Source: Candidatus Methanoperedens sp. (GTDB taxonomy: Archaea > Halobacteriota > Methanosarcinia > Methanosarcinales > Methanoperedenaceae). Taken from it: a stretch of 32,000 nt of DNA. A program made the position numbers and the translations under genes. Positions 1,080-29,728 of this stretch are shown one piece after another; position 1 is the stretch's first letter; each line of letters starts with the position of its first letter. The DNA is taken from positions 30,001 through 62,000 of the forward strand of contig JAPZAR010000029.1 in the NCBI GenBank assembly GCA_027460535.1, in the 5' to 3' direction. The notes beneath the pieces are model-generated. The model made no database searches. It saw only the letters and a list, made by a program, of their open reading frames with translations, and had not been told where the DNA came from.

Positions 1080-1161
1080 ATTTACCTCCACTCTAATATC
1101 GCTTGAGTAAATATGGTGACTTGGAGTAGATGTAATTTTCTCCCAGGTGGGAAGATGGTCA

Positions 1162-1182
1162 AATTATAGTTAAGAACCTAAC
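1162..1182. repeat. IS630 terminal inverted repeat, left
   Basis: Matches the reverse complement of 2226-2246 at 19 of 21 positions. Confidence 0.8.
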
Positions 1183-2193: not shown

Positions 2194-2225
2194 ATTGAAC
2201 TATAATGCTCTAATTAGTTATAAAA

Positions 2226-2246
2226 GTTACGTTTTTAACTATAATT
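2226..2246. repeat. IS630 terminal inverted repeat, right
   Basis: Matches the reverse complement of 1162-1182 at 19 of 21 positions. Confidence 0.8.
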
Positions 2247-3308
2247 CATCTTATTATTGCGGGGAAAGAGAGGCCTGAGAAACATCTTTCTGGCATTGCC
2301 AAGCTGATGAAGTTTTGTTATTTTCTGATGGTGTTAATTCTGAACAAGTAACTGATACCTTGGAACAAATGGGCACAGAATATAAAATAATTCCATGTAT
2401 TACTGACCATTTATGTCGGATTCCATTATGCCAAACAATGAATTGTGTATATTACCTTCTGCAACCCCGATTTCTAGACTATCTAAACAAGATGCGTGGT
2501 TTGATGATGAAGAATGAACGAAAAACAGAAAGAATAGAATTCAAATTATTCAGGAATAATTTGGGTATAATATTGGAAAATTGCTTTATATCAACAAACA
2601 CATTTAATTCGTTGAGGAACGAACCAACCAATACCACCAAACCACCATCCTATCCTATCCAAAAATATTTCTTTTTTTTGGTTTGTTTCCTCAATATTTA
2701 TTCCAATTACTGCTAAGATTATTTTTAATATAAGTTTTTCTATTCTGGCTGAAAATCGGGTCATGCATCCTTATTGCTCCACCAATAGACATCTAATTAG
2801 CATCTTTCAGAACATATTCTCTAACTTTCAATTTTTTAATATGTTCATCTAATAGATTTCAAATTTGTCTTCGTTTATGATTTGAAAAATCTTTCAAGTT
2901 TATGGATTCACTGATCTCTCATTCCGATGGTGATGTTAGCTCCATGAAGTAATTTTCATCGCCATATCTGATGGAGAAGGAAAAGGAAGATGGGCAGGGA
3001 GGGTATACGGATACTGAATAAGTCACAAAAAAACGGGATTACCTGCCCATCAATATTATAACCGTTGCATTAATTAATAAGATTATCCATGTTCATAATG
3101 ATGAAAGTCTAACTTGTATTACATGGTGAATATTGTATAGTACATCAATTAATGCTGGGTCGAATATGACGGATTATATACAATCATCTCTAATTCTACC
3201 TTTGGTTGTAGCTGCATTACCTATTATAGTTAAATTTATTATATATTATTTATATCATCCTAAACTTGAGATATTTTTCCCATCACCCAAGTGATTAATA
3301 GCTACTCT

Positions 3309-9424: not shown

Positions 9425-9685
9425 AACTCTCGCTCTGATAACTTACATTGTTAATAGAATTATCGGTTTTTAGTGACTGTTTCAATTCGTGGTGGTAGTT
9501 ATCCTGAAATCAATACCTTGTATCTAAAAACAATACCGATAAGATGAGTTATTTCTTGGTTTTACTATTAATTTATGCGCTAAGTAAAAATTTTACACAA
9601 CCATCACAAAATCCATCTCTCGATCCCGGTCAATTATAATGAATTGTAGTTACGGTTATAATTTTCTGTTCTTCAAGAATCCTTT

Positions 9686-10618
9686 TTAGAAGTTATGTAT
9701 CTCTCTATGCTTTTTGAGGTAAGTTTTGTCTGGAATGTATTTTATAGGCATTCTAATCTTCTTCCCATTTAAATCAGAAATAGCGGTTGCAAGTATACTA
9801 CTCTTCGGCTTAAATGACTTTGTCACAATTACTTCATATTGATCAGAAATGGAGATTAACCCATTTTCGAAAGCGACATCATGGAGAACACAGAGACAAA
9901 TACCGTTTGTAGGATATGACGCTATTTTTATATCCTTGCTTACTGGCACAACGTGGCAACCTCTCAAAAACTGCCCATCATCAACATCGCACATGGCACA
10001 CTTACTTTGATAACACTCTAATAGTATATTACGAAAAGCCTGTTGAAAATTTCTGGTTTTAACCTTTCTCTCCGAAAATGTAGCACCCTTCCTTATACCT
10101 TCTTCATATTCCTGAATAATTTTGTCTTTTTTCACGACGTTCCATATTCCTAGCCCTCGCACCTTTTGTTCTGTTAAGGGCATGACGGTTGACAACCAAC
10201 CCTCTTGTTTATTGATTTTTTTTAGTTCTGTGCCCAGCCAGTTAACATGTAACGTGTGCTTATAGTCAACCGGTATAGGATTATAATAATATTCATCATC
10301 CACCTTACCAATCCCTGCAATTTCTTTTTGCCCTTTGTTAGCAATTATAATATCTCCCTTTTTAACATTTCTGAAGTCCAAAAGTTGTTGAGCATCTCGT
10401 GTTAGACGGGTTTTATAATTAGGGGCTGTGTAATAAGTATAATACGTTCGTAGTCTATCTTTAATTTGGTCTAAACTTAATTCTGATAAATCGCCGACCT
10501 TGGACCAGCCCATTGCAATTTTTTTCTCTTCAATGCAAATAGACCATTGCCTTTCCCAACCTCTGTGATCCCTTCCCCAATTCGACGGGGAGATTTTCAA
10601 ATAGCGAATATCTTTCAT
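9686..10618 (-). CDS. Two-domain protein: unassigned (possibly PUA-like/EVE-like) N-terminal domain fused to an HNH_2 nuclease. Candidate type IV (modification-dependent) restriction enzyme.
   Basis: 310 aa. The C-terminus CAMCDVDDGQFLRGCHVVPVSKD...TNGICLCVLHDVAFENGLISI fits the HNH_2 pattern (C..C...HI.P....NG..LC..H..FD.G). The N-terminal 160 aa (YLKISPSNWG...IAMGWSKVGDL...VKKGDIIIANKGQKEIAGIGKVDDEYYY) has a small beta-barrel reader-like pattern. The gene is visibly more AT-rich than its neighbours. Confidence 0.6.
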   Translation of the reverse strand: MKDIRYLKISPSNWGRDHRGWERQWSICIEEKKIAMGWSKVGDLSELSLDQIKDRLRTYYTYYTAPNYKTRLTRDAQQLLDFRNVKKGDIIIANKGQKEIAGIGKVDDEYYYNPIPVDYKHTLHVNWLGTELKKINKQEGWLSTVMPLTEQKVRGLGIWNVVKKDKIIQEYEEGIRKGATFSERKVKTRNFQQAFRNILLECYQSKCAMCDVDDGQFLRGCHVVPVSKDIKIASYPTNGICLCVLHDVAFENGLISISDQYEVIVTKSFKPKSSILATAISDLNGKKIRMPIKYIPDKTYLKKHREIHNF

Positions 10619-12419: not shown

Positions 12420-12506
12420 CGGGCGCGGAGGGAATTGAACCCCCGACCTACAGCTTGCTCCTTAGAAATTAGGAGGCTGCCGCCATATCCTCTAGGCCAC
12501 GCGCCC
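12420..12506 (-). tRNA. tRNA-Arg(CCU) with a 14-nt intron at the canonical 37/38 position
   Basis: Hand-folded cloverleaf on the minus strand. Acceptor GGGCGCG/CGCGCCC. D arm GCC(T)-AGAGGATA-(T)GGC. Anticodon stem GCAGC/GCTGT with loop CTCCTA|A, anticodon CCT at 12473-12471. The 14-nt intron ATTTCTAAGGAGCA contains AGGAG, which can pair with the anticodon region. T arm GGGGG-TTCAATT-CCCTC. Confidence 0.85.
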
Positions 12507-14077: not shown

Positions 14078-15595
14078 CTAAAAGACCTTCGTTGCCTGGA
14101 CTCTCTCTAAAAGCATGCCTTCCACAATTATGGGGAAGTCCGTCTCCGCACTCTTTAATGCATTTGTTAGTTTCCAGCTCTTGTCAGCGAAAATCGTTAT
14201 CAGGGGTTCACCTTTCTTAACGATCTCACCTTTTTTCTTATGGATCCACACCCCCGACCCTCTGTCAATGGGGGCTCCCGCAATCCTCGCTATCTCCACG
14301 ATTCTTTTATTGTCGAATTCAATAACATAACCTTCTGCCGGGGATGCAAGCTCAGCCCTATGTTCACCCGGTTTTATATCGGCATATGTTATTTTAGGAT
14401 TTCCACCCTGTGCCTCTATGATTTCCCTTAATTTGCCCAGAGCCTTGCCTGAACGAAGTGTTTCCATCGCTATATCCTTACCGTGCCCTTTGGCCGCTGC
14501 TCCGCCCATTTCAAGCAAGATGCCGGCAAGTGCCGTACTCTTTTCAATAAGGCTGTTAGGCCCCTGCATTGTTTCCAGTACTTTGAGAGCCTCCCTGACC
14601 TCGATTGCCGGACCGACCGTCCTTCCGACCGGTGAGGCGCCGTAGGTCATGGCGCATTCCACACTCATCCCGAGCCTTTCTCCCAGTTCGATCAAGTCCC
14701 TTGCCAGTTTTTTTCCCTCCTGAATCGTGGGAACTTTTGTCCCGCTGCCGATGGGTATATCGATGACGACACAGTCTGCGCCAACTGCCCCCTTTTTCGC
14801 CATTATGGACGCAAGAAGCTGGTTATGGGGGTCTATCCCGAGTGGATATTCAGCATGTATCAGCTTGTCATCAGCCGGAGCTATATTTGTAGCGCCACCC
14901 CATGCGATCACGCCTCCTACCTTCTCTGTAATGGATTTTATTTCCTCGGCCCCGAATTCTACTGGTGCAAGCACTTCCATAAGGTCAGCTGTGCCTGCCG
15001 CGCCGGTAATGGCCCGTGAGCTTGTCTTGGGTATCAGGAGACCGTTCGCAGCTATTATGGGTACGACCAGCAGCGATATTTTATTCCCAGGTACACCCCC
15101 GATGCTGTGCTTGTCCACAATGGGATGGGTATCGAATTCGATCTTCTCGCCCGTATCGATCATTGCCCTTGTGAGCCATTCGACCTCATCCGAGCTCATT
15201 CCGTGGATGTATGAAGAGGTAACGAATGCAGACAACTCTATTTCCGTAAGGTTATCCCTGACAATATCCTGGACGATCTGGTATATCTCTTCCTGCGTCA
15301 GCTTCTGGTGATCCATATATTTTTTAATGAAGCCGACGGAGCTGGGTCTTGAAGTGGGTATGATATCTACTGTAAGTGGGCATATCTTTCCAAGTTTCTC
15401 GCAACATTCCTGGTATACCCCTAGGTTACCTCTTTGAATCATATCGCCTGTTTCAACGATCGCAGTGATATAACTATGATCTTTTAATTGAACTCGGTCG
15501 CCGCCGCGAACCCCCAGTTCCTTAGCATCTTCGGTATTTAGGACAACCTTGAATTTTCCTGCCTTTATTTGAAGTGGTTGGACTTTTAATTCCAT
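14078..15595 (-). CDS. deoA: AMP phosphorylase (archaeal thymidine-phosphorylase-family enzyme)
   Basis: 505 aa. It has the characteristic N-terminal extension MELKVQPLQIKAGKFKVVLNTEDAKELGVRGGDRVQLK ahead of the glycosyltransferase core (DKHSIGGVPGNK, TSSRAITGAAGTAD) and a C-terminal alpha/beta domain. This size and layout match archaeal AMP phosphorylase. Confidence 0.8.
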   Translation of the reverse strand: MELKVQPLQIKAGKFKVVLNTEDAKELGVRGGDRVQLKDHSYITAIVETGDMIQRGNLGVYQECCEKLGKICPLTVDIIPTSRPSSVGFIKKYMDHQKLTQEEIYQIVQDIVRDNLTEIELSAFVTSSYIHGMSSDEVEWLTRAMIDTGEKIEFDTHPIVDKHSIGGVPGNKISLLVVPIIAANGLLIPKTSSRAITGAAGTADLMEVLAPVEFGAEEIKSITEKVGGVIAWGGATNIAPADDKLIHAEYPLGIDPHNQLLASIMAKKGAVGADCVVIDIPIGSGTKVPTIQEGKKLARDLIELGERLGMSVECAMTYGASPVGRTVGPAIEVREALKVLETMQGPNSLIEKSTALAGILLEMGGAAAKGHGKDIAMETLRSGKALGKLREIIEAQGGNPKITYADIKPGEHRAELASPAEGYVIEFDNKRIVEIARIAGAPIDRGSGVWIHKKKGEIVKKGEPLITIFADKSWKLTNALKSAETDFPIIVEGMLLERVQATKVF

Positions 15596-15805
15596 TTTAT
15601 CGTACCCTTGTTCAGTCTATATTTACTGTTTGCAATATTTAGGATATAATTTTTTAATGTTTTTAGAGACATTTGTTAAACAGTGCCATTTTTAATAACA
15701 TTCTTACTAATACCAAAAATAGGCTCTTATTCGATAAAAAGCTTTATATTAATAGATATCAAAGTAATACTAAAATAATTTATTATAAAAAGGAGATTAG
15801 AAATT

Positions 15806-15955
15806 ATGGGTAAAGTTGTAAAGCTCCGGAAGTCGGGCAAAAGCCTGATCATAACCATACCAATGGCAATAGCTGAAATGTTTAACCTCAAAGAAGGATC
15901 GTTGGTAGAGATTGAGCCATTTACCTCTAGCTCCATGCAGCTTAAGGTAAAATGA
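15806..15955 (+). CDS. AbrB/MazE/SpoVT-type DNA-binding protein (49 aa)
   Basis: Below the ORF-track size cutoff. AAGGAG lies 11 nt upstream of the ATG. The product MGKVVKLRKSGKSLIITIPMAIAEMFNLKEGSLVEIEPFTSSSMQLKVK matches the swapped-hairpin SpoVT/AbrB pattern (..G.S..v.iP....e...l..Gd.v.i). No toxin-like partner ORF follows. Confidence 0.65.
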   Translation: MGKVVKLRKSGKSLIITIPMAIAEMFNLKEGSLVEIEPFTSSSMQLKVK

Positions 15956-16009
15956 CCGTTACTTTTACCTATCCCTTCCGGAGATAAACCATCCGGTTGA
16001 TAAATATGC

Positions 16010-16318
16010 TCACCCATTTTTAAACATTCTACTCCAGATTTCTGTCCCTTCCTCCGCATATATCTGTGATTTCACAATTAGCATCTTATTGTAAAGTGCC
16101 ATGATAAATGCTATCAGGAAGACAACCTGTGTTATCTCGGCAATATAATAGGTGTTTAGCACATCTCCTGCATCTCTGAACCAAATCGTAAACTTGATTA
16201 GTATATTTAGAGCAAACCCTGCTCCAGCAACTGAAATATATATCCAAGTTCGCTCCAGCACTGCCTTGTCAAGAAATAAATCAGTATTTGATAAGTCCCT
16301 GTCCGCTTTGCGTATCAT
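16010..16318 (-). CDS. Hypothetical membrane protein, possibly the 3' part of a frameshifted gene
   Basis: 102 aa with two TM helices. The same frame stays open upstream through another TM-like stretch (LEILTKGLVEVFLEIFTACAAFILIILIGQILF) that has no ATG, GTG or TTG. Confidence 0.4.
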   Translation of the reverse strand: MIRKADRDLSNTDLFLDKAVLERTWIYISVAGAGFALNILIKFTIWFRDAGDVLNTYYIAEITQVVFLIAFIMALYNKMLIVKSQIYAEEGTEIWSRMFKNG

Positions 16319-16763
16319 AAAGAGAATCTGCCCAATGAGGATGATTAAAATAAACGCAGCACATGCAGTAAATATTTCTAAGAAAACCTCAACAAGCCCT
16401 TTTGTTAAAATCTCTAATTCCTCCTTTATGAAATTTTATGAGCAGGTCATTTGAAGTTATACCTTCCGAAACAATAACAAACGAACCTATGACTGCTATT
16501 AAAAATAGTACATTCAAATTATATTTCACCATAGTACCATCAAAGTTTAATTACCTATATAATATTTATAACTGTCGATACATGCAACTTAAGGTAAAAT
16601 AAATTTATAAGTCATCGGCAAATAGGTTGTATTTAGCACTATTGATTAATCCGCAGGATGTTTTCATGATTAGTTCTCAGGCTGTCATCTCCTCTATTAG
16701 GGTATCAAAAAACAAAGAACGGGCGCGAAAACATGATCCGACTCGTATGGGGTAAAGCCGGGA

Positions 16764-18448: not shown

Positions 18449-18700
18449 ATGCGACGAAGCAGGATAGATATCATTATCGATGTTCTGGAGGTGGCAAGGA
18501 TGGGCGTGAATAAAACGAGCGTTGTCTACAGGACGAATCTGAATTTTAGGCTGGCGGATAAATATCTTGAGTTACTGCAGAGGCAAGGATTTGTAGAGAA
18601 TAGAGTGGATAAATATATAACAACAGACAAAGGGAAGATCTTTTTGGAGAAAGCCAAAGAAATCAATCTACATTTAGAAGAGCCTGACCGAAACTGGTAA
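18449..18700 (+). CDS. Small winged-helix DNA-binding protein
   Basis: 83 aa: IIIDVLEVARMGVNKTSVVYRTNLNFRLADKYLELLQRQGFVENRVDKYITTDKGKIFLEKA. This is the archaeal wHTH small-regulator pattern. Confidence 0.6.
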   Translation: MRRSRIDIIIDVLEVARMGVNKTSVVYRTNLNFRLADKYLELLQRQGFVENRVDKYITTDKGKIFLEKAKEINLHLEEPDRNW

Positions 18701-18866
18701 TACCAATCTCCTCATTTTTTATTTCTACAAGCCCATACTCATTCATGAAATCCAGGGTTGCAGCAACCTTTGATGGAATTTCTTTTTCAATTTCATTTAT
18801 ACGGAGTTTTTCTTTCTCACTGATTATTTCAAGGATTCTATCTGCGGTTTCTCCGAATTTTGTCAT
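18663..18866 (-). CDS. Small winged-helix-like protein
   Basis: I chose the start at MTKFGETADRILEIISEKEKLRINEIEKEIPSKVAATLDFMNEYGLVEIKNEEIGITSFGQALL, giving 67 aa. The 3' end overlaps the convergent gene 18449-18700 by 38 nt. Confidence 0.45.
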   Translation of the reverse strand: MTKFGETADRILEIISEKEKLRINEIEKEIPSKVAATLDFMNEYGLVEIKNEEIGITSFGQALLNVD

Positions 18867-19125
18867 ACCTTTCTTGATAATGATGAAATAGTATATATAA
18901 CTCAACTTAACAGAGTTCCTTAACGTGCTTTCTTAATATAATTTCTTAACTATATTTACTAATATTTTATATTACCTTCAAGCGTAGGAGTGTTTGCCCT
19001 TCATGGGCAGGATAAAACAGGTGATAAAATGAATAACGAGAAACCGAATAGGACAGAAGAAGAAAGGGCAGCAGAGGAAATATTCCAGAAATATCCTCTA
19101 AACTTCGGTTAAGAGGCATCTTAAA

Positions 19126-20034
19126 ATGAGCTGGAGAAACAATATTGAACTATTAAGATTGTGCAACTCTCCAGCTTCTATAATTTCACCTTTCCCTATT
19201 TTTGCAATTTCCCTTTTTCTAATATCTCGCAGAGAGTTCAATATTCACGATTTACCCATTCTATTTGCCGGAATAGTTATCTCACTTTTTTCGAACTTTG
19301 GTTCTAACTTATGGAACCATTGCAATGATATAAAAGAGGATTTGGCACAAGGCAAGAAAACGATTTTAACACAGGATAGATCAATGCAAAAAACAGCACT
19401 GTTTATCGCTGTCATGCTCTACGCATTCTCTATACTCTTTGTTTATTATTTATCAATCGAACTTAAAAAGCCAATTTACTTGTTTTTTTTAATTTGGGCT
19501 TTTGCAACCTGGTGGTATTCGGATAATCTAATTCTTAAAAAAATTATTGGTTTTAGACTAAAAGAGCATTATATAGGTGAGTTTATCACCTATGGCGTTG
19601 CATGGCCCACGTATACATTGAGCATCTGGCTTGTATATTCTGATTTAAATGCCAAAGGAGTATTGACATCTGCGGCATTCTTTTTACTTAGCATATCAGC
19701 GCTACTGTTAAAGGATTTAAAAGACATAACAGGAGATAGGAAAGCTGGTTTAAAAACTTTTGGAGTAACATTCTCCCCTTCTCGACTAATACGATACTCC
19801 TCTTACATGATGTTGTTATTTTATTTTATCTTACTGAATCCACTTTCTTTAAATCTTTTTGGTATCGGTATTTTGGTCATGATCTTTCCATTCGTTTATT
19901 TTTTTAAAAATACCTTTGCCCACATGTATAAAAAAAACTGGGTTTTAGAGCTAGAAGATATGAAAGCACTGAAATGCATAGGCAAATCTATCTATGCATC
20001 GGTGATATTTATAGGGCTGAGCGCTTTTCATTAA
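19126..20034 (+). CDS. UbiA-superfamily integral-membrane prenyltransferase (divergent)
   Basis: 302 aa with about 8 hydrophobic helices. First motif NLWNHCNDIKEDLAQGKKT is a degenerate NxxxDxxxD. Second motif LLLKDLKDITGDRKAGLKTFGV fits the DxxGDxxxGxxT pattern seen in DGGGP-synthase and chlorophyll-synthase-type UbiA enzymes. Confidence 0.7.
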   Translation: MSWRNNIELLRLCNSPASIISPFPIFAISLFLISRREFNIHDLPILFAGIVISLFSNFGSNLWNHCNDIKEDLAQGKKTILTQDRSMQKTALFIAVMLYAFSILFVYYLSIELKKPIYLFFLIWAFATWWYSDNLILKKIIGFRLKEHYIGEFITYGVAWPTYTLSIWLVYSDLNAKGVLTSAAFFLLSISALLLKDLKDITGDRKAGLKTFGVTFSPSRLIRYSSYMMLLFYFILLNPLSLNLFGIGILVMIFPFVYFFKNTFAHMYKKNWVLELEDMKALKCIGKSIYASVIFIGLSAFH

Positions 20035-21404
20035 ATTTCCAAACAGGTATTTGTACCAGCATTTGTAAAAAAAATATTATCATTCGCTTCTGATAAATAA
20101 TTTCTTAACTGGAATTCAGGTGGAATATACGCTGAAGGAGGGTAAGATAAAATTCCAAAATAATTTTTACCTAATAGTTTTTTCACTTTATCTTTATATT
20201 CAAAAGTTTTCTCTCCGAATGTGGTTGCAACTCCTACATCAATGCAGAAATAAATAAAACTACCATTATTATATTTCAAATTATTTAAACTTGAGATGAA
20301 TGCATCAAATTTATCATTCACCATTTCATAAACTAGGGCAACCTTTTCTGAATAATCTGAAACATCCATAATTAGAGGGAACAGGTCGAATGGTAAAAAG
20401 TTGCCCATACCAATAACAAACGCTCCCTTTGTTTTTTTATTGAAAAAAAACAACCCATACGGTATGAAGATTTTATAGTCTCCTTTGTCAAGATTCCCTA
20501 AAATTTCTTTCTCTTTTTTATCAAATACATGTATCAGATTCTTTACTGCTTCGGGGGAGGGTATGCCATCCAGCGATATTAAAATATTTTTTTCAAAGTT
20601 TGCTTTAAATTCCTTTATAACTTTAAAGTTATTATTGATTATGCATCTTGTTTCATCAAGAGTTTTACCTTTATCAGGAAAGATCTCATCATATACAGCA
20701 TTTATATTCTCTTTCTCGATTGTGAGTGCAGCAATGCCTTCTTCTATATCCCTGAAGTTACAGAAAATGCTGGGAGAATTAAACCTCAGTTGTGTATGCA
20801 ATACGTTAATTCCTATAATCGGCACTTTATAATCGGTACTTTGTGCAAAAATATCAAGTACAGTCGGAGGTGGGTAGATAAATTTCTCTTTATCGCAGTA
20901 ATCTGCGAATTTTCCCGCATATTCTTTTTGTTTTTCCGGATTCGCTCTTTTGCATAATGTACTGTAATATAATCCTCTCGCACAAATTTGACTGACCTTA
21001 AACGCACTTGCCATATGTGCTAATGGAAAATGTAATATAACAACCCCTTTCTTGCAATCTATTTTTTTGGCGAGTTTTTTCGCAGATTCTATTGCACCAT
21101 TTTCATTCGCTCCTTGAACTCTTATCTTTGCGTCAGGGTCAGTGCATAGTACCAGCGCGGCACCATCCATTCTTAAATCATCTGGAAATATCATTCCATC
21201 CACAGAAGCGCCTATCTGTGGTATATCGCCATACTCTTCATGGAATATATCCAGCATGGACTGATATTTGCCGCCATACTTTAACGTGGCATAGAATAAA
21301 GCAAGGTCAGGTTTAAAATCCAGATGCAAATGAGCTTGCTCTAAAATATCCAGTGCAGCCTGCTTATGGTCTTTTTTATTACTGAAAAGCGTAAGAGATC
21401 TCAT
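20031..21404 (-). CDS. FIST-like (FIST_N/FIST_C) sensory-domain protein
   Basis: 457 aa. The N-terminal pattern ...AALDILEQAHLHLDFKPDLALFYATLKYGGKYQSMLDIFHEEYGDIPQIGASVDGMIFPD...DGAALVLC resembles FIST_N. Assignment is from memory of the family pattern only. Confidence 0.45.
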   Translation of the reverse strand: MRSLTLFSNKKDHKQAALDILEQAHLHLDFKPDLALFYATLKYGGKYQSMLDIFHEEYGDIPQIGASVDGMIFPDDLRMDGAALVLCTDPDAKIRVQGANENGAIESAKKLAKKIDCKKGVVILHFPLAHMASAFKVSQICARGLYYSTLCKRANPEKQKEYAGKFADYCDKEKFIYPPPTVLDIFAQSTDYKVPIIGINVLHTQLRFNSPSIFCNFRDIEEGIAALTIEKENINAVYDEIFPDKGKTLDETRCIINNNFKVIKEFKANFEKNILISLDGIPSPEAVKNLIHVFDKKEKEILGNLDKGDYKIFIPYGLFFFNKKTKGAFVIGMGNFLPFDLFPLIMDVSDYSEKVALVYEMVNDKFDAFISSLNNLKYNNGSFIYFCIDVGVATTFGEKTFEYKDKVKKLLGKNYFGILSYPPSAYIPPEFQLRNYLSEANDNIFFTNAGTNTCLEI

Positions 21405-21678
21405 TTCACCTTTTGTATTTTTGTCTCCGGGGCGTTTTTACTTTCCATTATATCCAGAATTTCAATTAGTTTGTTTGGGAATATATATTTTTCCGCTATA
21501 TTATTAAGATGCAGTGTTCTTAATATTTTAACCTTCTCACCAGGTTTAAAGGGAGAATGCCTAGGTCAACTTGATAAACATTCTATGAGGATGCAAAGGC
21601 AGAACTATATCTATTTTGGAGATTAATTTTAATCCGATACAGGTATCCATCGATTATTAATCCGAGGGAGGAAAAATT

Positions 21679-23244
21679 ATGAGCTTGGAAAAAAGTCAGG
21701 TCAGAGAGGCTATTAGAAAAAGTCAGGCTTTTCTGCTTAAAGGCGTAGAGAACCATTTGATATTAAATGGGAGAAGACAGCAAGAATTCCTAATAAATCC
21801 ATGCCCATTAGCCACAGCCCTTGCAATTCTAGCATCCGAGAGAAATTGTGAACCAGTAAAAAACGCAATCACCTGGCTTCGGAAAATACAGAATAAGGAT
21901 GGCGGATGGGGTTTTGCGGATAGCGTGCCCAGCGATATTAATAGCACTGCTCTATGCATTCTGGCTCTGGAAGAGACTGAAAGACAGATAGAAAAAAGAG
22001 CCCGCATTTTCATGAAAGAAAATGGTGGTTTCTCAAAAACAGAATGGTTTGTTCAAGTGATTTCAAGTTTATTTGACAAATACTCCCCGGATGAGATTCG
22101 TACTCCAGGTGTTGGTGCCTCAAGATTGCCTCTTCCGGAACTGCGATTTACACCTTCATTTTATGCTAATCTGAATCCTACTGCGAAAAATATGGTTTTT
22201 AGCCTTACCGCGCTGGAAATGTTGGCTAAAAAGGAAAATGCTAACAAAACACTGGGATTTTTAGAAAGTGTTCAGGGACTGGATGGTTCTTGGGATCAAG
22301 AGGTTATACTTACTTCTTTCGCAACATTGGCGTTTCAAAAAGCTAAAATAAATCCCAGAATAAATCCGAATCATTGGTTTTCCGAGGTGCAATATTCAGA
22401 TGGTGCTTGGCCAGCTTTCAACCAATTAGCTTGTTGGGATATAGGTTGGGCCAGTTCTATTCTTGCTGGAAAATTTTTGCGGGATGAAAGACTACAAAGA
22501 GCGAAAAAGTATCTTGAAGATGGAATGTATTTGGACGGAAGTTTTGGGTTCACATTGCCACATGCAGGGCCGGATATTGATGACACTGCAGTGGCTTTAA
22601 TAGGGCTTAAAAATCTCTGTTCAGAGAAAACTCTACAGACATCTCGATATTTAAAATTTATGCAGAATGCAGATGGAAGCTGGAGCACATTCCCGGAGTT
22701 CTTTGGCAGTCCCCCGTATTGCATTTCAGGAAAAGTTGTTCATTTACCAAGTGTGGATGTAACGTGTCATGTTTTAAAAGCCTTATACGACGAACCATTA
22801 ACAAATAAAGAACCTTTCATAGAGTCGGCTCTCGACTGGTTAGTCTCAGCTCAGAACAAAGATGGCTCATGGGAATCGACATGGTTCAGGGGTAATATCT
22901 ACGCGACTTCTGAGGCTATAACCACTTTGCATAAATTTGGCATTGAGGGAGAAACTATATCCAGAGGTTTAGAATGGGTTGGTGGTCAACAGCGCTCTGA
23001 TGGGAGTTTTGGCAATGGCACCGTACCAGAAACGTCATTAGCGTTAACAGCATTCATGGCATGCCTTTTTGAAAAAGTGGATGTTGATAAGGCAGTTCAA
23101 TTCTTATTGGATGAACAAAACCCCGACGGATCTTTTTCAAGATCTTATACAGGAATCTATTTCGGTATTTATTATAATGACCCCATATATTTTACCTATT
23201 TGGGATTAAATGCGCTTGAACTATACAATAAAATGGAAAAATAA
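21679..23244 (+). CDS. Class II terpene cyclase, squalene-hopene-cyclase-like
   Basis: 521 aa. It has eight QW-type repeats: [64 protein letters not shown]. A DxDDTA motif, [14 protein letters not shown], lies at nt 22573-22590. Blocks collinear with A. acidocaldarius SHC as I recall it: [13 protein letters not shown] vs [36 protein letters not shown] vs [38 protein letters not shown] vs ETQRPDGGWDEPYYTG. RBS GGGAGG lies upstream. Confidence 0.75.
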   Translation: [521 protein letters not shown]

Positions 23245-23309
23245 AATTCAAAGAACATTTCGGGTGCGAAATTTTCAATAAAAACCTATTCGTAAAATAG
23301 AAAGTTCTT

Positions 23310-23735
23310 CTAAATGTCAAGTACGACCCTTGCGATCCAGTTTTGTCCTTTCTTCCTGACCTCGTATAGATGGTAGGTGACTGCTTTTACGTCCGATCTC
23401 AAGGTATGCTTTTCCCGGTCGATGGTCTCGCCGGATATTATTGCGTAAAGTTCGTATTCATCATTTTTTTTGATTGTCACATCAAATCTTCCAAAGAGAA
23501 TCGATTCGGCGTCCTTAAGATAGACCAGCTCTGAGAGCCAGTCAAAAAGAAGCCCCTCAATAGATTCGTTTTTCAATTCGATCTTTCTGCTAACCGCTGG
23601 TTTTATGCTTTTCGTATCTGCCATGACCTCAGAGATCGCGAATGCCGCATCCCTGAACAATTCTTCCAGATTCCTGCCTTCGGCCTCAAAGGCAACATCC
23701 GAAGTAGCGATGTCCTCAAGATATCGAAAAGGCAT
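23310..23735 (-). CDS. Archease (RtcB tRNA-ligase cofactor)
   Basis: 141 aa: MPFRYLEDIATSDVAFEAEGRNLEELFRDAAFAISEVM...LLFDWLSELVYL...VKAVTYHLYEV...ARVVLDI. This is the canonical archease pattern. Confidence 0.85.
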   Translation of the reverse strand: MPFRYLEDIATSDVAFEAEGRNLEELFRDAAFAISEVMADTKSIKPAVSRKIELKNESIEGLLFDWLSELVYLKDAESILFGRFDVTIKKNDEYELYAIISGETIDREKHTLRSDVKAVTYHLYEVRKKGQNWIARVVLDI

Positions 23736-24100: not shown

Positions 24101-25186
24101 ATGGTGAAGAAAAGTGAGATGAAGAAAGAAGAAGGTCAAGAAAAAAAAGATGTTTTCAAAGTATGGGCCGACAGCTATACCGCTGTTTCAAAAATGTGGG
24201 AGGAATCCTACATGAACCTGTACAAGCCCTGGATAGAAACCACGGGTGAAATGTTCGAAAAAGCAGTTGAGCTATCAAAGGAAGCCACGCCTGAGAAGTA
24301 CAAAGAATTCTATGATGAATGGATAAAGGCACAGCAGAAGACGTTTGGGAAAATCTATCCTATCCCGATGCAGAAATCCGACCGGGAGACGCTTGAGAAA
24401 CTTCTTGTAAGCGCGGAGGAAGCGAACAACCTCTTCAAATCCTGGGTCGCCGAGATAGAGGAGAACACGCAGAGAACGCAAGATTTGCTGAAAGGTACAC
24501 CCGACCCCGAAAAGTACAGGGATCATTTTAATATGTGGATGAAATCCTATGAAAAAATATTCGATGAGTTCATTTCCATGCCGGCTATGGAAAGCACGAA
24601 GGAAATATTCGGGAATTATGGCGGCATACCTAATATGTACTTAAAGAATTTTGCAGAGATGTCAAAAATATGGAAGAATTCGTTCTCTGACTTGTACTTG
24701 CCCTGGGTTGACCCCATGTTCAGGCTCTCCGGGAAGACGGCTGAGCTCTCAAGGGGAAACGCAACTCCTGAAGACTACAAGGAATTCTACAATCTTTGGA
24801 TGAAAACATACCAGGAAACATATGGCAAGATGTTCAATGTCCAATCCATGAAGCCGTCAAAGGAAATGCTTGAAAATTTCCTCGAGAGCACCAATATCTA
24901 TCTCAACATGTATAAAACGTGGATAGCTGCCATGGAAAAGATGTCGGAAAAGGTCAAAGACCTGTCGGGACGCACGTCCGATCCTGAAGCTTATAAGGAA
25001 TTTTACGACCTCTGGGTAACGACATATGAGAAAGCTTTCGAAGACTTCTTCGAGAACATGCCCACTATTGGCCCTATGAAGAAGATGATGGAACCTGTAA
25101 AGAGCGCGGCCAAGATATACGCCGACACATTTGCGAACATGTCAAATATGTGGATCGAGTCTTTTCCCAGCACAGCCCGGGCCTGA
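24101..25186 (+). CDS. PhaE-N-like tandem-repeat protein (candidate phasin or PHA-granule-associated protein)
   Basis: 361 aa with four copies of a module ending (T/D)PExY(K/R)(E/D)(F/H)(Y/F)..W....Y....F. These are TPEKYKEFYDEWIKAQQKTFGKIY (from nt 24287), DPEKYRDHFNMWMKSYEKIFDEF (from nt 24500), TPEDYKEFYNLWMKTYQETYGKMF (from nt 24764) and DPEAYKEFYDLWVTTYEKAFEDFF (from nt 24980). The same module occurs in the downstream PhaE as SPEAYRDFYRLWIETYSETFKEFL. Confidence 0.6.
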   Translation: MVKKSEMKKEEGQEKKDVFKVWADSYTAVSKMWEESYMNLYKPWIETTGEMFEKAVELSKEATPEKYKEFYDEWIKAQQKTFGKIYPIPMQKSDRETLEKLLVSAEEANNLFKSWVAEIEENTQRTQDLLKGTPDPEKYRDHFNMWMKSYEKIFDEFISMPAMESTKEIFGNYGGIPNMYLKNFAEMSKIWKNSFSDLYLPWVDPMFRLSGKTAELSRGNATPEDYKEFYNLWMKTYQETYGKMFNVQSMKPSKEMLENFLESTNIYLNMYKTWIAAMEKMSEKVKDLSGRTSDPEAYKEFYDLWVTTYEKAFEDFFENMPTIGPMKKMMEPVKSAAKIYADTFANMSNMWIESFPSTARA

Positions 25187-25188
25187 GT

Positions 25189-25749
25189 ATGGAAAGAACC
25201 TGTTTTGAATCCACCCACGAGTTTTTTGAGATGTGGTTAAAGACCTATGAAGCAACCTATGGCAGGCTCATAGAAATGCCTCCCATGGGCCCGATGCGCG
25301 AGAAATCAGAAAAAGTGATGAAGAATTTTTCGCTTTCAGTCAACCTTTACACGGCATGGATGGAATCCCTGGCCGATTTCCAGAGTGTTTTCATTGAAGC
25401 CATGCGCAGGATGCGCGAAAAGATGGCAGTGGAGGGGGAGGTCAGCCCTGAAGCATATAGGGATTTTTATAGGTTATGGATTGAAACTTACAGCGAGACG
25501 TTCAAAGAATTCTTGAAGTCAGGCCATTTTTCCTCGGGCATGGGCAGGCTCATGTCATATTCTATCGATTTCCAGAAAAATAACAGGGAAATGCTTGAGG
25601 AGAATTACATGAAAACATTGGGCCTTCCCACAAGGACCGAGATCGATGAGATAAACAGGGAAGTCTATTTTCTCAAGAAAAAGGTAAAGGAGCTGGCAGG
25701 AGCGTCAAGGAACTCGCAGGGGATGGGAGGACTCCATGAACAGTCTTGA
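25189..25749 (+). CDS. phaE: PHA synthase subunit PhaE (class III)
   Basis: I set the start at ATG 25189, 2 nt after the upstream stop, giving 186 aa. The C-terminal LGLPTRTEIDEINREVYFLKKKVKEL is the typical PhaE C-terminal helix. It lies immediately upstream of phaC and overlaps it. Confidence 0.7.
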   Translation: MERTCFESTHEFFEMWLKTYEATYGRLIEMPPMGPMREKSEKVMKNFSLSVNLYTAWMESLADFQSVFIEAMRRMREKMAVEGEVSPEAYRDFYRLWIETYSETFKEFLKSGHFSSGMGRLMSYSIDFQKNNREMLEENYMKTLGLPTRTEIDEINREVYFLKKKVKELAGASRNSQGMGGLHEQS

Positions 25750-26920
25750 TTTCATAGAGAGGCAGATAAAATTCGTAAGAGGGATGGAAATACTGCTGGA
25801 ACCTCCCGAAATTACAGTTGGGACTACCCCTTCGGAGGTCGTCTATGCAGAAGACGACATGAAGCTTCTGCATTACATTCCAACATCAGAAAAATCGTAT
25901 CCGATTCCGGTGTTGATAGTATATGCATTTGTTAACAGGTATTACATCCTGGATCTCCAGCCCGATAAGAGCGTGATAAAAAAGCTGCTGAATGAGGGCC
26001 TCGATGTCTACATCATTGATTGGGGATACCCTTCGGGGGCAGACATGTACCTGACCCTTGATGATTACGTTAACGGCTATATAAATAATGCAGTGGACAA
26101 AGTCAGGGAAATATCGGGAACGGAAAAGATCACACTGCTCGGGGTGTGCCAGGGGGGAACGCTTTCCGTGATGTACGCCTCACTTTATCCTGAAAAAGTG
26201 AAGAACCTTGTTGCCCTTGTGACACCGGTGAATTTCGATACGGATAAAGGACTTCTCCATATCTGGGCAAAAAGCCTGGATGTTGACAAGATGGTTGACT
26301 ACTATGGGATAGTACCAGGGGATCTGCTGAATGTTGGATTCCTGCTCACGGATCCTTTCAGGCTTATGATAGACAAGTATGTGGGATTATTCGAGAGGAT
26401 CGAAGGCGAGCCTGATAATGCGGGTTATCTCAGGAATGAGGAGACGGTCAAGACCTTCCTGCGGATGGAGAAATGGATATTTGACAGCCCAGACCAGGCA
26501 GGCGAAGCTTTTCGGCAGTTCATGAAGGACTGCTACCAGAACAACCTTCTCATCAAGAATGAGATGAAGCTAGACGGGAAGAAGATCGACCTGAAAAAAA
26601 TAACGATGCCCCTATTAAATGTTATGGCGGAGACGGATCATCTTGTTCCCAACGCTGCGAGCATTCCGCTTAACGATGCGGTTGCGAGCGAAGATAAGGA
26701 GACACTCATTTTCCCGACGGGGCATATCGGTATCTTTGTTGGTTCCAAATCGCAGAAAGAGGTTTGTCCGAAGATTGCGGAGTGGCTGAAGCCGAGATCT
26801 TTACCGGAAGAGATGAAAGAGCGATCGGAAGAGCAAAGAGAGCAAGCTGGAGTGGAAAAACCCGGACAACCGGTAGTGCGTAAAAGAAGAGGTCGTAAGG
26901 CGAGGAGAAGCGTAAAATGA
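25736..26920 (+). CDS. phaC: PHA synthase catalytic subunit PhaC (class III)
   Basis: 394 aa alpha/beta hydrolase. It has the lipase-box-like GVCQGG, DWGYP, and candidate Asp (AETDHLVP) and His (PTGHIGIF) triad residues. The C-terminal tail is charged and basic (RKRRGRKARRSVK). Confidence 0.85.
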   Translation: MNSLDFIERQIKFVRGMEILLEPPEITVGTTPSEVVYAEDDMKLLHYIPTSEKSYPIPVLIVYAFVNRYYILDLQPDKSVIKKLLNEGLDVYIIDWGYPSGADMYLTLDDYVNGYINNAVDKVREISGTEKITLLGVCQGGTLSVMYASLYPEKVKNLVALVTPVNFDTDKGLLHIWAKSLDVDKMVDYYGIVPGDLLNVGFLLTDPFRLMIDKYVGLFERIEGEPDNAGYLRNEETVKTFLRMEKWIFDSPDQAGEAFRQFMKDCYQNNLLIKNEMKLDGKKIDLKKITMPLLNVMAETDHLVPNAASIPLNDAVASEDKETLIFPTGHIGIFVGSKSQKEVCPKIAEWLKPRSLPEEMKERSEEQREQAGVEKPGQPVVRKRRGRKARRSVK

Positions 26921-27657
26921 GACTCGATAACAAAGTTGCAATTATTACAGGTGGAGGGAGCGGTATTGGCAGGGAAACTGCAATGCTGTTCGCCGAGGAG
27001 GGTGCAAAGGTGGCAATAACTGGAAGGACGGATGAGAGAATAAAGAAAGTCTGCGAAGAGATAAGCGAAAAAGGTGGAAAATCAATCTATGTCCGGGGGG
27101 ATGTTTCAATAAAGGAAGACATGGATGAAGTCGTCAATAAGACTATCAATGAATTTGGGCGGATTGATATCCTGATAAACAACGCAGGGATCAATCAGGA
27201 TGCTTTAGTAACTAAAATGACCAGGGAACAGTGGAATGGTGTCATTAACATCGATCTTTCCGGCGCTTTCAATTGCATCCAGGCAGTGGTCGATGTAATG
27301 ATCAACCAGGGTAGTGGTGTGATTATCAATGCGTCATCAATTTCAGGCATATATGGTAATATCGGACAGGTAAATTACGCTTCGGCAAAGGCTGGGCTAA
27401 TAGGTTTGACCAAGACCCTTGCAAAGGAACTCGGTAAAAAAGGCATCCGTGTCAATGCGGTCGCTCCGGGATTCACAGTTACACCCATGACTTCGAAAGT
27501 ACCTGAAAAAATTATGAATATAATGATAGAGAAGACCCCTCTTCGCAGGCTGGCAGAGCCACGGGATATTGCCTACGCATACCTTTATCTCGCTTCGGAT
27601 GAGGCGAGGTTCGTTAACGGGGCAGTGCTCTCGGTCGACGGGGGATTGACCATCTGA
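26917..27657 (+). CDS. phaB: SDR-family 3-oxoacyl/acetoacetyl-CoA reductase (PhaB/FabG-like)
   Basis: 246 aa with TGGGSGIGRE, NNAG and YASAKAG (YxxxK). ATGA overlap with phaC. The PhaB role is inferred from operon context. Confidence 0.65.
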   Translation: MRLDNKVAIITGGGSGIGRETAMLFAEEGAKVAITGRTDERIKKVCEEISEKGGKSIYVRGDVSIKEDMDEVVNKTINEFGRIDILINNAGINQDALVTKMTREQWNGVINIDLSGAFNCIQAVVDVMINQGSGVIINASSISGIYGNIGQVNYASAKAGLIGLTKTLAKELGKKGIRVNAVAPGFTVTPMTSKVPEKIMNIMIEKTPLRRLAEPRDIAYAYLYLASDEARFVNGAVLSVDGGLTI

Positions 27658-27682
27658 GATTTAAAACAAGTGGGAGAATTAA

Positions 27683-28861
27683 ATGAACAAAGCAGTGATT
27701 GTTTCGGCAACGAGGACCGCGATAGGGAAATTTGGCGGGAGTCTTAAGGATTTCACGCCCGGACAACTTGGTTCCGTGGTGCTGAAAGATGCGCTGAAAA
27801 GGGCGCAGGTTGAACCTGACGAGGTTGATGAAGTTATCATGGGAAATGTTCTTTCAGGGGGCCATGGCATGAATATTGCCAGGCAATCCTCGATATGGGC
27901 AGGGCTGCCGGAAAAGGTACCTTCCTGCTGCGTGAACAAAGTTTGCGGCTCTGGATTGAAATCGGTTATCTTTGGTGCCCAGGCAATCATGCTGGGCGAT
28001 GAGGATATCATACTCACCGGAGGAACGGAATCCATGTCGGCATCCATGTATGCCCTTAAAAAAGCACGCTGGGGGATCAAGATGGGCAATGATGAGACAA
28101 TTGACACGATGATAAGTGACGGGCTCTGGGATATTTTCAATAATGTCCACATGGGGATTACGGCAGAAAATGTGGCTGAGAAATATCACATCAGGCGGGA
28201 AGACCAGGACGAATTCTCAGCAAAAAGCCAGAATAAATCAGAATCTGCCATAAAAGCCGGGAGGTTCAAGGATGAAATAGTTCCTGTAGAAGTCCCGCAG
28301 CCAAAAGGCGACCCTCTTCTTTTTGATACGGATGAGTTCCCGAGATTCGGAACAACAAAAGAAGTACTATCCAGGTTGAAACCGGCATTCAAAAAAGATG
28401 GCACAGTGACGGCAGGGAATGCGTCCGGGATCAATGACGGGGCTGCATCGGTCCTTCTCATGTCGGAAGAAAAGGCCCGGGATAAGGGCCTGGAGCCGCT
28501 TGCAACCATCATTGGCTACGCGTTCTGCGCAATACCTCCGGAAATAATGGGAATGGGACCGGTTTGCGCAACCAGGAAAGTCCTTGAGCGCGCGGATCTG
28601 AAACTGGATGATATTGATCTTATAGAAGTGAATGAAGCATTTGCAGCCCAGTCGGTTGCCGTCAGCAAAGAATTGGGATGGGATATGGACAGGGTAAATG
28701 TTAACGGGGGCGCCATAGCCCTCGGGCATCCAATAGGTGCGAGCGGAGCCAGGATACTGGTCACATTGATCCATGAATTGATAAGAAGAGATAGCACTTA
28801 CGGACTTGCCACACTCTGTATCGGGGGTGGGCAGGGTATTGCAGTAGTAATTGGGAGGTAG
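27683..28861 (+). CDS. phaA: Acetyl-CoA acetyltransferase (thiolase II, PhaA-like)
   Basis: 392 aa with VNKVCGSGLKS (active-site Cys), NEAFAAQ, GHPIGASGARI and CIGGGQGIA, the classical biosynthetic thiolase signatures. Confidence 0.85.
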   Translation: MNKAVIVSATRTAIGKFGGSLKDFTPGQLGSVVLKDALKRAQVEPDEVDEVIMGNVLSGGHGMNIARQSSIWAGLPEKVPSCCVNKVCGSGLKSVIFGAQAIMLGDEDIILTGGTESMSASMYALKKARWGIKMGNDETIDTMISDGLWDIFNNVHMGITAENVAEKYHIRREDQDEFSAKSQNKSESAIKAGRFKDEIVPVEVPQPKGDPLLFDTDEFPRFGTTKEVLSRLKPAFKKDGTVTAGNASGINDGAASVLLMSEEKARDKGLEPLATIIGYAFCAIPPEIMGMGPVCATRKVLERADLKLDDIDLIEVNEAFAAQSVAVSKELGWDMDRVNVNGGAIALGHPIGASGARILVTLIHELIRRDSTYGLATLCIGGGQGIAVVIGR

Positions 28862-28867
28862 ATAGAA

Positions 28868-29728
28868 ATGGAAAACAATAGGAATGGAGCGCGTCTGAAA
28901 GGCAAAGTAGCCCTGGTAACCGGGGGCTCAAGAGGTATTGGCATGGCGATAGCAATGAGGATGGCGGAGGAAGGCGCGGATGTTGCCATAAATTACCAGA
29001 ATACCAGAGAGCATGCAGAGAACGTATCTAAACTGGTAGACCACATAGGCACGATCGATGAAATCGGGAAATTATCGGTGATAATAGATCGTATGGATAC
29101 CAAGGAGCACGCAAAGGAGGCATCGAAACTGGTGGAATCAATGGGCTGCCACTCATGTATCGTTCAGGCGAACGTGAGCGATATCGAGCAGGTGAACAAA
29201 ATGAAAGACGAGGTGCTCAAAAAATTCGGCAAAATAGATATTCTGGTCAATAACGCAGGAATCACCAGGGATAAATCGTTCGTCAAAATGACCCCGGAAA
29301 TGTGGTCAGAAGTAATATCTGTGAACCTGAATGGGGCGTTCAACTGCACCAAAGCCGTAATAGACGATATGCTGGAACGAAAATACGGGCGCATAATCAA
29401 TATCTCCTCTGTCATAGGGAGGATGGGCAATTTCGGACAGGCGAACTATGCAGCATCGAAAGCGGGAATGATCGGCCTTACACAGACGCTTGCAAAAGAA
29501 TTCGCAGGTAAAGGCATAACGGTCAATGCGATAGCACCAGGATTCATTGAAACCGATATGGTGAGATCTGTCCCGAAAGAAGCGATGGAAAAAATCCTGG
29601 CAAAAATACCCCTCGGCAGACTGGGAAAGCCTGCAGAGGTCGCCGCAGCCGTGGCCTATCTTGTTTCCCCTGAAGGTGAATACATAACAGGTCAGGTTTT
29701 AGATATAAATGGGGGACTTTACATATAA
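28868..29728 (+). CDS. Second SDR reductase (FabG-like) carrying an internal 32-aa partial duplication
   Basis: 286 aa with TGGSRGIGMA, NNAG and YAASKAG. It is about 40 aa longer than the first SDR because of an insert between beta2 and beta3 that repeats TREHAENVSKLVDHIG as TKEHAKEASKLVESMG. Confidence 0.8.
   Translation: MENNRNGARLKGKVALVTGGSRGIGMAIAMRMAEEGADVAINYQNTREHAENVSKLVDHIGTIDEIGKLSVIIDRMDTKEHAKEASKLVESMGCHSCIVQANVSDIEQVNKMKDEVLKKFGKIDILVNNAGITRDKSFVKMTPEMWSEVISVNLNGAFNCTKAVIDDMLERKYGRIINISSVIGRMGNFGQANYAASKAGMIGLTQTLAKEFAGKGITVNAIAPGFIETDMVRSVPKEAMEKILAKIPLGRLGKPAEVAAAVAYLVSPEGEYITGQVLDINGGLYI

Follow-up and report, generated by a model that had tools for sequence, protein, structure and literature searches.

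A conserved archaeal UbiA/FIST-like gene pair and a probably separately gained class II terpene cyclase gene in Candidatus Methanoperedens

Few class II terpene cyclases are known from archaea: in the literature we searched, they are represented only by MstE-like monodomain homologues in Methanosarcina and by the diterpenoid cyclases of Asgard archaea, whose halimadienyl diphosphate synthases show that functional enzymes of this class occur in the domain. Among two-domain enzymes, the closest described systems are the squalene-hopene cyclase (SHC) of A. acidocaldarius (PDB 1SQC/2SQC/3SQC) and the cyclases of prenyl diphosphates, namely, the drimenyl diphosphate synthase SsDMS (7XQ4), the ent-CPP synthase PtmT2 (5BP8), and Rv3377c (6VPT). 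A UbiA-type prenyltransferase is paired with a class II cyclase in the MstE, Lon15, and AtoE clusters, while the FIST domain is known from FBXO22 (PDB 8UA3/8S7E; Pfam PF08495/PF10442). We analyzed a stretch of 32,000 nucleotides from Candidatus Methanoperedens (the window), in which genes for a UbiA prenyltransferase, a FIST-like protein, and a class II terpene cyclase lie side by side. A sequence-only reading had taken the three for an AT-rich isoprenoid island acquired horizontally as a unit. A novel three-gene island is not what the locus holds. We consider it likely that the locus is a composite, in which a vertically inherited UbiA/FIST-like core was joined by a separately gained cyclase, with the mechanism proposed below.

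To place the three genes, GTDB species representatives were scanned with an alignment of the FIST-like family (A2). This yielded 42 loci (numbered with an L in what follows), and the 31 that were long enough to hold both the FIST-like and the UbiA gene were compared by means of a tblastn matrix and maps of open reading frames (ORFs). The two genes were found adjoining and convergent in all 31 species-level loci, usually with an overlap of 4 to 14 nt (4 nt in the window). The cyclase was present in three of the 31 (the window, L010, and L011), so that the trio failed the presence/absence test for a block; its acquisition as a unit is contradicted by the 28 loci in which UbiA and the FIST-like gene occur without the cyclase. 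The expectation that the trio would be syntenic elsewhere was borne out in every cyclase-bearing Methanoperedens context that reaches far enough (the window, L010, and L001/L011), and the best-matching clusters for the cyclase, the FIST-like protein, and UbiA are all on 6.65-kb contigs.

The UbiA/FIST-like pair is part of a longer gene order, which in Methanoperedens consists of a KaiC-like ATPase gene (PF06745), AF0774 (PF27410, 117 aa), the FIST-like gene (FIST/AF0772_C), the convergent UbiA gene, a 67-aa ORF, and an HTH_45 gene. In L008 and L009, for instance, the ATPase, AF0774, FIST-like, and UbiA genes are found together without a cyclase. Outside Methanoperedens, the same four-gene set occurs in ANME-2 anaerobic methanotrophs (L035, L037, and L041), in Candidatus Mnemosynella (L043), in the Archaeoglobi member JdFR-42 (L045), and in Methanonatronarchaeia (L047 and L048); an unclassified uncultured archaeon (L051) has a layout like that of L047, with the ATPase, AF0774, and FIST-like genes. 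Across lineages, the four genes are 33 to 54% identical and their outer flanks are unrelated. Because the set recurs across lineages in such different surroundings, it would represent a functionally coupled neighborhood. The UbiA/FIST-like pair is conserved in at least five archaeal lineages and is tied to the KaiC-like ATPase and AF0774. Membership in this set explains the FIST-like gene better than does a regulatory function for the cyclase; from the sequence, it had been proposed as a regulatory or accessory component. No description of an association of the four genes was found in the literature searched: queries on AF0772/AF0774 returned only unrelated accession number matches, those on FIST, KaiC, and prenyltransferase nothing relevant, and those on Methanoperedens, UbiA, and menaquinone no papers.

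Of this set, the window holds the UbiA/FIST-like half (19126-21404), and no KaiC-like or AF0774 gene was found in the window or in the 10 kb beyond each of its ends on the 73.6-kb contig. In L010, L001, and L003, AF0774 and the ATPase gene adjoin the cyclase at the place where the window has an archease gene. As judged from this gene order, the archease flank marks a rearrangement that split the ATPase/AF0774 half from the UbiA/FIST-like half. IS630-like and IS110 transposases are encoded near the rearranged locus, and the upstream side is also rearranged in L013, L021, L025-L028, and L046, other Methanoperedens species among them.

Where the neighborhood is intact, the cyclase sits between AF0774 and the FIST-like gene, on the opposite strand (L010 and L001/L002). 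In L003, it adjoins AF0774 and the ATPase gene, and the contig stops before the FIST-like side. In a neighbor-joining tree of concatenated FIST-like and UbiA sequences, the window, L010, and L011 group together, and among the loci of the genome scan no cyclase is present in ANME-2, in Archaeoglobi, or in any other lineage with the four-gene set. A single gain in one subclade would be the most economical reading of this distribution. As a separate observation, one cyclase-bearing genome has a tandem of AF0774, a shortened FIST-like paralogue (389 aa), and a further AF0774 beside the cyclase (L011:6402-8170, equivalent to L001:4413-6556).

The proposal of a joint acquisition had been based on base composition. 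The three genes are indeed low in GC (0.337 for UbiA, 0.341 for the FIST-like gene, and 0.405 for the cyclase) and in GC at third codon positions (GC3; 0.33, 0.29, and 0.335, respectively, compared to a window mean of 0.44 with a standard deviation of 0.09 and to about 0.5 in most housekeeping genes). However, other low-GC stretches are present in the window (1001-3500, 9501-10500, and 15501-16500), and these patches include an IS630-like element and an HNH endonuclease ORF. In the cyclase-less loci L008 and L009, GC3 was 0.25 to 0.33 for UbiA and 0.35 to 0.41 for the FIST-like gene, compared to 0.45 to 0.59 for their neighbors. Since orthologues without a cyclase are just as AT-rich, the AT-richness of these two genes does not by itself point to a joint acquisition; it would be an old and stable property rather than the mark of a recent joint import. 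The GC3 of the cyclase was low in the three genomes measured (0.29 to 0.39), which fits either a foreign origin or low expression, and of the three genes only the cyclase has a composition consistent with a foreign origin. No tRNA gene was detected near the region by a tRNA scan, no significant direct repeats flank it, and no integrase domain was found by Pfam among the neighboring genes. The joint three-gene island was rejected on synteny, together with the composition of orthologues, and the features expected at its borders were not found.

The cyclase itself matches Pfam SQHop_cyclase_C with 115.9 bits and SQHop_cyclase_N with 72.3 bits, both above the cut-off. Its AlphaFold model (pLDDT 91.9, pTM 0.92) has two alpha-barrel domains (beta-gamma), for which Foldseek retrieved SHC (TM 0.76) and SsDMS (TM 0.70), with a probability of 1.0, along with OSC, PtmT2, and Rv3377c. 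The motif D299-I-D-D302 aligns with the PDVDDTAV motif of the A. acidocaldarius enzyme. Among 117 aligned homologues, DxDD is present in 115 and ECDD in the other two; in the alignment A4, D301 and D302 are invariant. In a pairwise alignment, His364, Trp402, and Tyr408 also line up with SHC, including the stretch EDVTAHVLE; the SHC residues opposite these three are presumably H451, W489, and Y495. Motif, fold, and phylogeny together make the protein a credible, predicted active class II terpene cyclase of an uncharacterized subfamily. It adds an archaeal representative to a known type of enzyme.

The resemblance to SHC lies in the beta-gamma double alpha-barrel and in the DxDD motif, which aligns with D374-D377 of that enzyme. 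In contrast, the window protein has 521 aa instead of 631, is about 21% identical, and branches with a family of about 530 aa from Firmicutes. It scored 118.7 bits with the hopene_cyclase model TIGR01507 (cut-off, 431.1) and 114.7 bits with the subfamily model squalene_cyclas (cut-off, 322.7). Neither the cyclase nor UbiA nor the FIST-like protein reached any NCBIfam equivalog cut-off. An assignment to the squalene-hopene cyclases proper was rejected on the basis of the TIGR01507 score and of its branching outside the SHC clade. SsDMS, PtmT2, and Rv3377c share with it a length of about 500 to 540 aa, the beta-gamma architecture, the DxDD motif, and the fold (TM 0.64 to 0.76), although the sequence similarity is weak (42 to 44 bits). 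The cyclases of Asgard archaea and of Mycobacterium belong to a different clade. MstE of the merosterol pathway differs as well: it is a monodomain protein with a DxD motif, whereas the window cyclase is a two-domain enzyme with DxDD.

In a database of 5.8 billion clusters, homologues of the cyclase fell into about seven clusters at 70 to 75% identity, followed by proteins of at most 35% identity, and none was found between 35 and 70%. The nearest outside relatives (30 to 35% identity) come from Desulfosporosinus and Desulfitobacterium, and the proteins of about 530 aa at or below 35% identity also include some from Dichloromethanomonas and metagenomic contigs. Neighbor joining placed the Methanoperedens cyclases in a single clade that has the Firmicutes-type clade as its sister and lies apart from the bona fide SHCs. 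In four bacterial cyclase contexts, no UbiA or FIST gene was found adjoining. The bacterial genes (L004:8001-9587, L007:8001-9596, L053:6001-7665, and L054:6001-7590) encode stand-alone DxDD cyclases of about 530 aa with no isoprenoid genes next to them; upstream are a GNAT acetyltransferase gene in the Desulfosporosinus-type loci (L004, L053, and L054) and a gene for a DUF3793 protein in Desulfitobacterium (L007). No paper linking Methanoperedens with squalene-hopene cyclase was found in the literature searched, and the few papers that combine Methanoperedens and terpenes concern other subjects.

The comparison with the MstE, Lon15, and AtoE clusters leads to a similar distinction. Like these, the window has a UbiA-family prenyltransferase gene close to a class II cyclase gene, at a distance of no more than 3 kb. 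The meroterpenoid logic proposed for the locus has a precedent in the pairing of UbiA-type and cyclase genes in MstE and Lon15, but it fails on co-inheritance, the prenyltransferase here being a core gene that in 28 of the 31 loci has no cyclase beside it. No acceptor biosynthesis genes are clustered with it in the window.

UbiA matches Pfam PF01040 with 67.3 bits (gathering score, 34.2), and N64/D68/D72 and D197/D200/D204 of its two Asp-rich motifs are invariant in an alignment of 12 family members (A3). It remained below all NCBIfam equivalog cut-offs, the best score being 37.5 bits where 269 would be needed. Models of DGGGP synthase gave 24 to 26 bits (cut-offs, 296 to 353) and those of MenA 18 to 26 bits (cut-offs, 102 to 522), and no housekeeping subfamily tested was reached (DGGGP synthase, MenA, UbiA/4-HB, chlorophyll synthase, and heme O synthase). 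The protein therefore does not fall within the DGGGP or quinone prenyltransferases, in line with the earlier proposal. A search of the PDB with the single sequence gave no match, and the family profile weakly matched chlorophyll synthase (31.6 bits), UBIAD1 (22.7 bits), and DGGGP synthase (20.2 bits). At least 120 Methanoperedens clusters are 64 to 76% identical to the protein, and the orthologues in ANME-2, Archaeoglobi, Mnemosynella, and Methanonatronarchaeia (33 to 50% identity) always adjoin a FIST-like gene. By sequence comparison, UbiA, a core gene, represents a separate family of orthologues, invariably in convergent orientation to the FIST-like gene.

The FIST-like protein gave a marginal match to Pfam FIST N (23.6 bits; cut-off, 23.2), and no match to FIST_C was obtained with hidden Markov models at an E value of 0.01 or below. 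The three gene identities assigned from the sequence were right. Precomputed Pfam annotation assigns the C-terminal half of orthologues to PF27411 (AF0772_C) and shows the weak FIST N match in many of them. No PDB entry was matched by sequence. The AlphaFold model, in contrast, is of high confidence (pLDDT 91.6, pTM 0.92), and its top four PDB fold matches are all the FIST domain of FBXO22 (E values, 9e-7 to 7e-5; TM 0.41/0.54; probability, 1.0), which makes the term FIST-like valid at the level of the fold. The likeness to FBXO22 consists of this fold and the marginal FIST N match, whereas identity is about 8%, FIST_C is missing, and the C-terminal half is the separate family AF0772_C. Unlike described FIST domain proteins, the window protein stands alone without an output domain, and the AF0772-type family is tiny and restricted to archaea: clustering at 50% gave 52 representatives among 1.84 billion proteins. 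At least 120 clusters are 60 to 76% identical to it (73 to 74% in cyclase-bearing genomes), and every FIST-like or UbiA cluster with a named source comes from Methanoperedens or an "uncultured archaeon." In Candidatus M. nitroreducens Mnv1, the FIST-like gene (L036:9992-11071) appears to be cut short or shifted in frame once about 330 conserved residues have passed, as either a pseudogene or an assembly error.

Of the other two members of the set, the partner ATPase, encoded outside the window, matched Pfam KaiC, KaiC_arch_3, and ArlH with 133, 115, and 53 bits, respectively. It is similar to single-domain KaiC-like ATPases of the ArlH/FlaH type (TIGR03880 KaiC_arch_3) but below every NCBIfam cut-off. 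AF0774 aligned over its full length with a Roadblock/LC7 protein (hhalign probability, 43%; E value, 2.4e-4), which is suggestive, and it may be Roadblock/LC7-like. Going by the names alone, AF0772_C and AF0774 would be families first described from two genes of Archaeoglobus fulgidus whose locus tags differ by two.

We propose the following scenario. The UbiA gene and the FIST-like AF0772 gene would be the vertically inherited core of a four-gene archaeal neighborhood, from which a rearrangement separated the ATPase/AF0774 half in the genome of the window. The cyclase would be a single-gene accessory insertion that arrived on one occasion, in the ancestor from which a small Methanoperedens subclade descends. 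It would have entered the neighborhood between AF0774 and the FIST-like gene, at a slot of variable content, and its ultimate source was probably bacterial, related to the 530-aa family of Desulfitobacteriaceae/Peptococcaceae. UbiA would move a prenyl chain from a prenyl diphosphate onto a membrane acceptor, and the soluble FIST-like, AF0774, and KaiC-like proteins may form an ATP-dependent sensory or regulatory set acting on UbiA and not on the cyclase. Via D301 of its DxDD motif, the cyclase would protonate a polyprenyl substrate at a terminal C=C bond and so give a polycyclic product; the substrate could be either the product of UbiA or another archaeal isoprenoid.

Several points weigh against this scenario. 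The trees are neighbor-joining trees with short internal branches, which do not strictly distinguish one gain from a gain with subsequent losses, and the best outside identity of the cyclase, by which a donor lineage would have to be placed, is at most 35%. A cyclase that is ancestral to Methanoperedens and was lost from most of its lineages, leaving a deletion polymorphism, would agree with the similar divergence of the three proteins between the same Methanoperedens genomes (70 to 75% identity for the cyclase, 73 to 74% for the FIST-like protein, and 67 to 76% for UbiA). We nevertheless judge it improbable, because many independent losses would be needed to explain the absence from ANME-2, Archaeoglobi, and the other core-bearing lineages and because no homologue at 35 to 70% identity exists in the cluster database; moreover, the cyclase-bearing loci form one shallow subclade. 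Also to be set against a merely accessory cyclase is its position: wherever a contig reaches far enough, the gene adjoins the FIST-like and UbiA genes, and it stayed there after the ATPase/AF0774 rearrangement. Furthermore, the same slot holds another gene in L015 (8676-9869, plus strand) and L036 (8778-9998, plus strand), which encodes an FAD protein of about 400 aa with its best match in the geranylgeranyl reductase superfamily (TIGR02032, 74 bits; cut-off, 158.8) and weak matches to Lycopene_cycl and squalene epoxidase. In L015, this gene lies on the strand of AF0774 and overlaps the AF0774 stop codon. Both the adjacency and the reductase-like gene are compatible with a true functional link of the cluster to isoprenoid tailoring.

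These same facts speak for a cyclase that was gained separately and fixed here because it acts on the product of UbiA, the slot serving as a lineage-specific site for isoprenoid tailoring: two isoprenoid-modifying families would then share one slot (the cyclase in the window, L010, and L011 and the reductase-like protein in L015 and L036), and the linkage would have been kept through the rearrangement. Yet the pattern comes from three plus two species, the reductase-like protein is below its cut-off, the cyclase lies on the opposite strand with an upstream region of its own, and its bacterial relatives have no such UbiA. In Methanonatronarchaeia, in addition, the slot is filled by two small minus-strand genes (L047:1885-2720, with the same arrangement in L051:8978-9855), one of them wHTH-like; since these are unrelated genes, the slot may simply tolerate insertions. 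We regard the tailoring explanation as unlikely, though not negligibly so, and a biochemical pathway leading from UbiA to the cyclase, to which the gene order might point, as similarly doubtful. The island of the sequence-only reading, a single acquired meroterpenoid-like unit in which UbiA prenylates, the cyclase cyclizes, and FIST regulates, can draw on the AT-richness of the three genes relative to their neighbors, on their synteny in all cyclase-bearing genomes with sufficient contig, on the MstE and Lon15 precedents, and on the position of UbiA outside the housekeeping equivalogs. It is very improbable given that in 28 of 31 loci UbiA and the FIST-like gene have no cyclase with them and that the pair is conserved across archaeal orders, that their low GC appears ancestral, that no borders, tRNA gene, or integrase were found, that bacterial relatives of the cyclase lack UbiA and FIST neighbors, that Pfam and NCBIfam revealed no gene for acceptor supply in the cluster, and that the repeats in the intergenic region are at chance level (see below).

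Of the two small slot genes of L047 and L051, one encodes a wHTH-like protein of 115 to 129 aa and the other a protein of about 140 aa that resembles, by eye only, an archaellum ArlD/E C-terminal domain.

The composite locus, with a conserved core and a later cyclase, would have consequences of its own. A two-domain cyclase with its catalytic motif intact, encoded by methane oxidizers that depend on nitrate or metals, suggests that cyclic terpenoids may be produced in some populations of ANME-2d, the group to which the archaeon of the window belongs. This would bear on membrane biology and on the interpretation of hopanoid-like or cyclic isoprenoid lipid biomarkers in anoxic settings. The analysis also brings to light an uncharacterized family of cyclases of about 530 aa in Desulfitobacteriaceae. 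The four-gene set, deeply conserved and unstudied, couples a dedicated UbiA prenyltransferase with a FIST-fold protein and a KaiC-like ATPase and is a target within archaeal "dark matter." More speculatively, and in our view rather improbably, the set could be an undescribed archaeal system in which a membrane prenyltransferase for a specialized prenylated lipid or cofactor is under the control of an ATP-dependent sensory module, the slot docks lineage-specific isoprenoid tailoring enzymes, and in the subclade of the window the bacterial-type cyclase turns the UbiA product into a polycyclic hopanoid- or meroterpenoid-like compound. If true, an archaeon that oxidizes methane anaerobically would be making a cyclic terpenoid, which could serve as a new biomarker.

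The stretch from which the FIST-like gene and the cyclase diverge contains, as had been pointed out, an 8-bp inverted repeat (TATTAAGA/TCTTAATA) and a duplicated 9-bp sequence (TTAATCCGA). In 1,000 dinucleotide-preserving shuffles of the 274 bp, however, an inverted repeat of at least 8 nt appeared in 21% (P = 0.21) and a direct repeat of at least 9 nt in 32% (P = 0.32), and the repeats are absent from the orthologous regions of L010, L011, and L002, where the region is poorly conserved. The repeats were rejected as regulatory or promoter elements on both counts. The region also contains a GGGAGG Shine-Dalgarno-like element 5' of the cyclase ATG.

The positions of all features are listed in Table 1. 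The ORF listing reproduced the coordinates, strands, 4-nt overlap, and 274-bp gap reported before, and Pfam and NCBIfam confirmed the flanking genes as a winged helix-turn-helix (wHTH) gene of the HTH_45/Sso10a type on the left and archease on the right. Synteny of the wHTH gene with UbiA is kept in most Methanoperedens loci. The small ORF between the two had no Pfam or NCBIfam match and is found at the same position, by tblastn, in about 20 Methanoperedens loci with 35 to 52% identity.

Table 1. Positions of the genes and motifs of the window and of the four-gene set in other loci
Feature	Coordinates	Strand	Basis or remark
Winged-helix gene, left flank	18449-18700	+	Pfam HTH_45, 76.9 bits; NCBIfam Sso10a_fam, 85 bits (cut-off, 60)
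Small ORF, gap between wHTH and UbiA genes	18663-18905	-	80 aa here, about 67 aa in relatives
UbiA prenyltransferase gene	19126-20034	+	ORF list, Pfam UbiA
UbiA first Asp-rich motif	19315-19341	+	N64-x3-D68-x3-D72, NHCNDIKED
UbiA second Asp-rich motif	19714-19737	+	D197-L-K199-D200-x3-D204
FIST-like gene, 457 aa	20031-21404	-	Pfam FIST N and PF27411 AF0772_C
Divergent intergenic region, FIST-like gene/cyclase, 274 bp	21405-21678	none	
Class II terpene cyclase gene, 521 aa	21679-23244	+	Pfam SQHop_cyclase_N/C; ORF 100% identical to protein O8C66_15805 of a Candidatus Methanoperedens metagenome-assembled genome
Cyclase DxDD general-acid motif	22573-22584	+	D299-I-D301-D302
Archease gene, right flank	23310-23735	-	Pfam Archease, 142.7 bits
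Four-gene set	L008:6568-10278		
Four-gene set	L009:6618-10279		
Four-gene set	L043:8708-12621		
Four-gene set	L045:8743-12287		
Four-gene set	L047:619-5069		
Four-gene set	L048:8754-12287		

Downstream of the cyclase and archease genes, the window carries a complete polyhydroxyalkanoate (PHA) gene set (24101-29728, plus strand) with two PhaE-like genes, PhaC, two short-chain dehydrogenase genes, and a thiolase gene. PHA storage is known in Methanoperedens, and the gene set is consistent with it. The IS630-like element (1170-2193, minus strand; GC3, about 0.30 to 0.33) is composed of an HTH ORF (1699-2193) and a DDE_3 transposase ORF (1170-1706), and the IS110 transposase gene is found farther along the same contig, about 5 kb to the right of where the window ends (L055:4569-5774). 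A scan for defense systems with PADLOC returned nothing beyond one weak P-loop match, and a defense system was rejected on this basis. ARAGORN reported an 87-nt tRNA-like gene (12420-12506, minus strand) with an undetermined two-base anticodon, which may be an intron-containing or otherwise atypical archaeal tRNA. The low-GC HNH_2 endonuclease ORF (9686-10618, minus strand), to which the source annotation of the contig adds DUF8426, sits between a gene for a tRNA synthetase of the valyl/isoleucyl type and CrcB genes and is possibly mobile or defense related.

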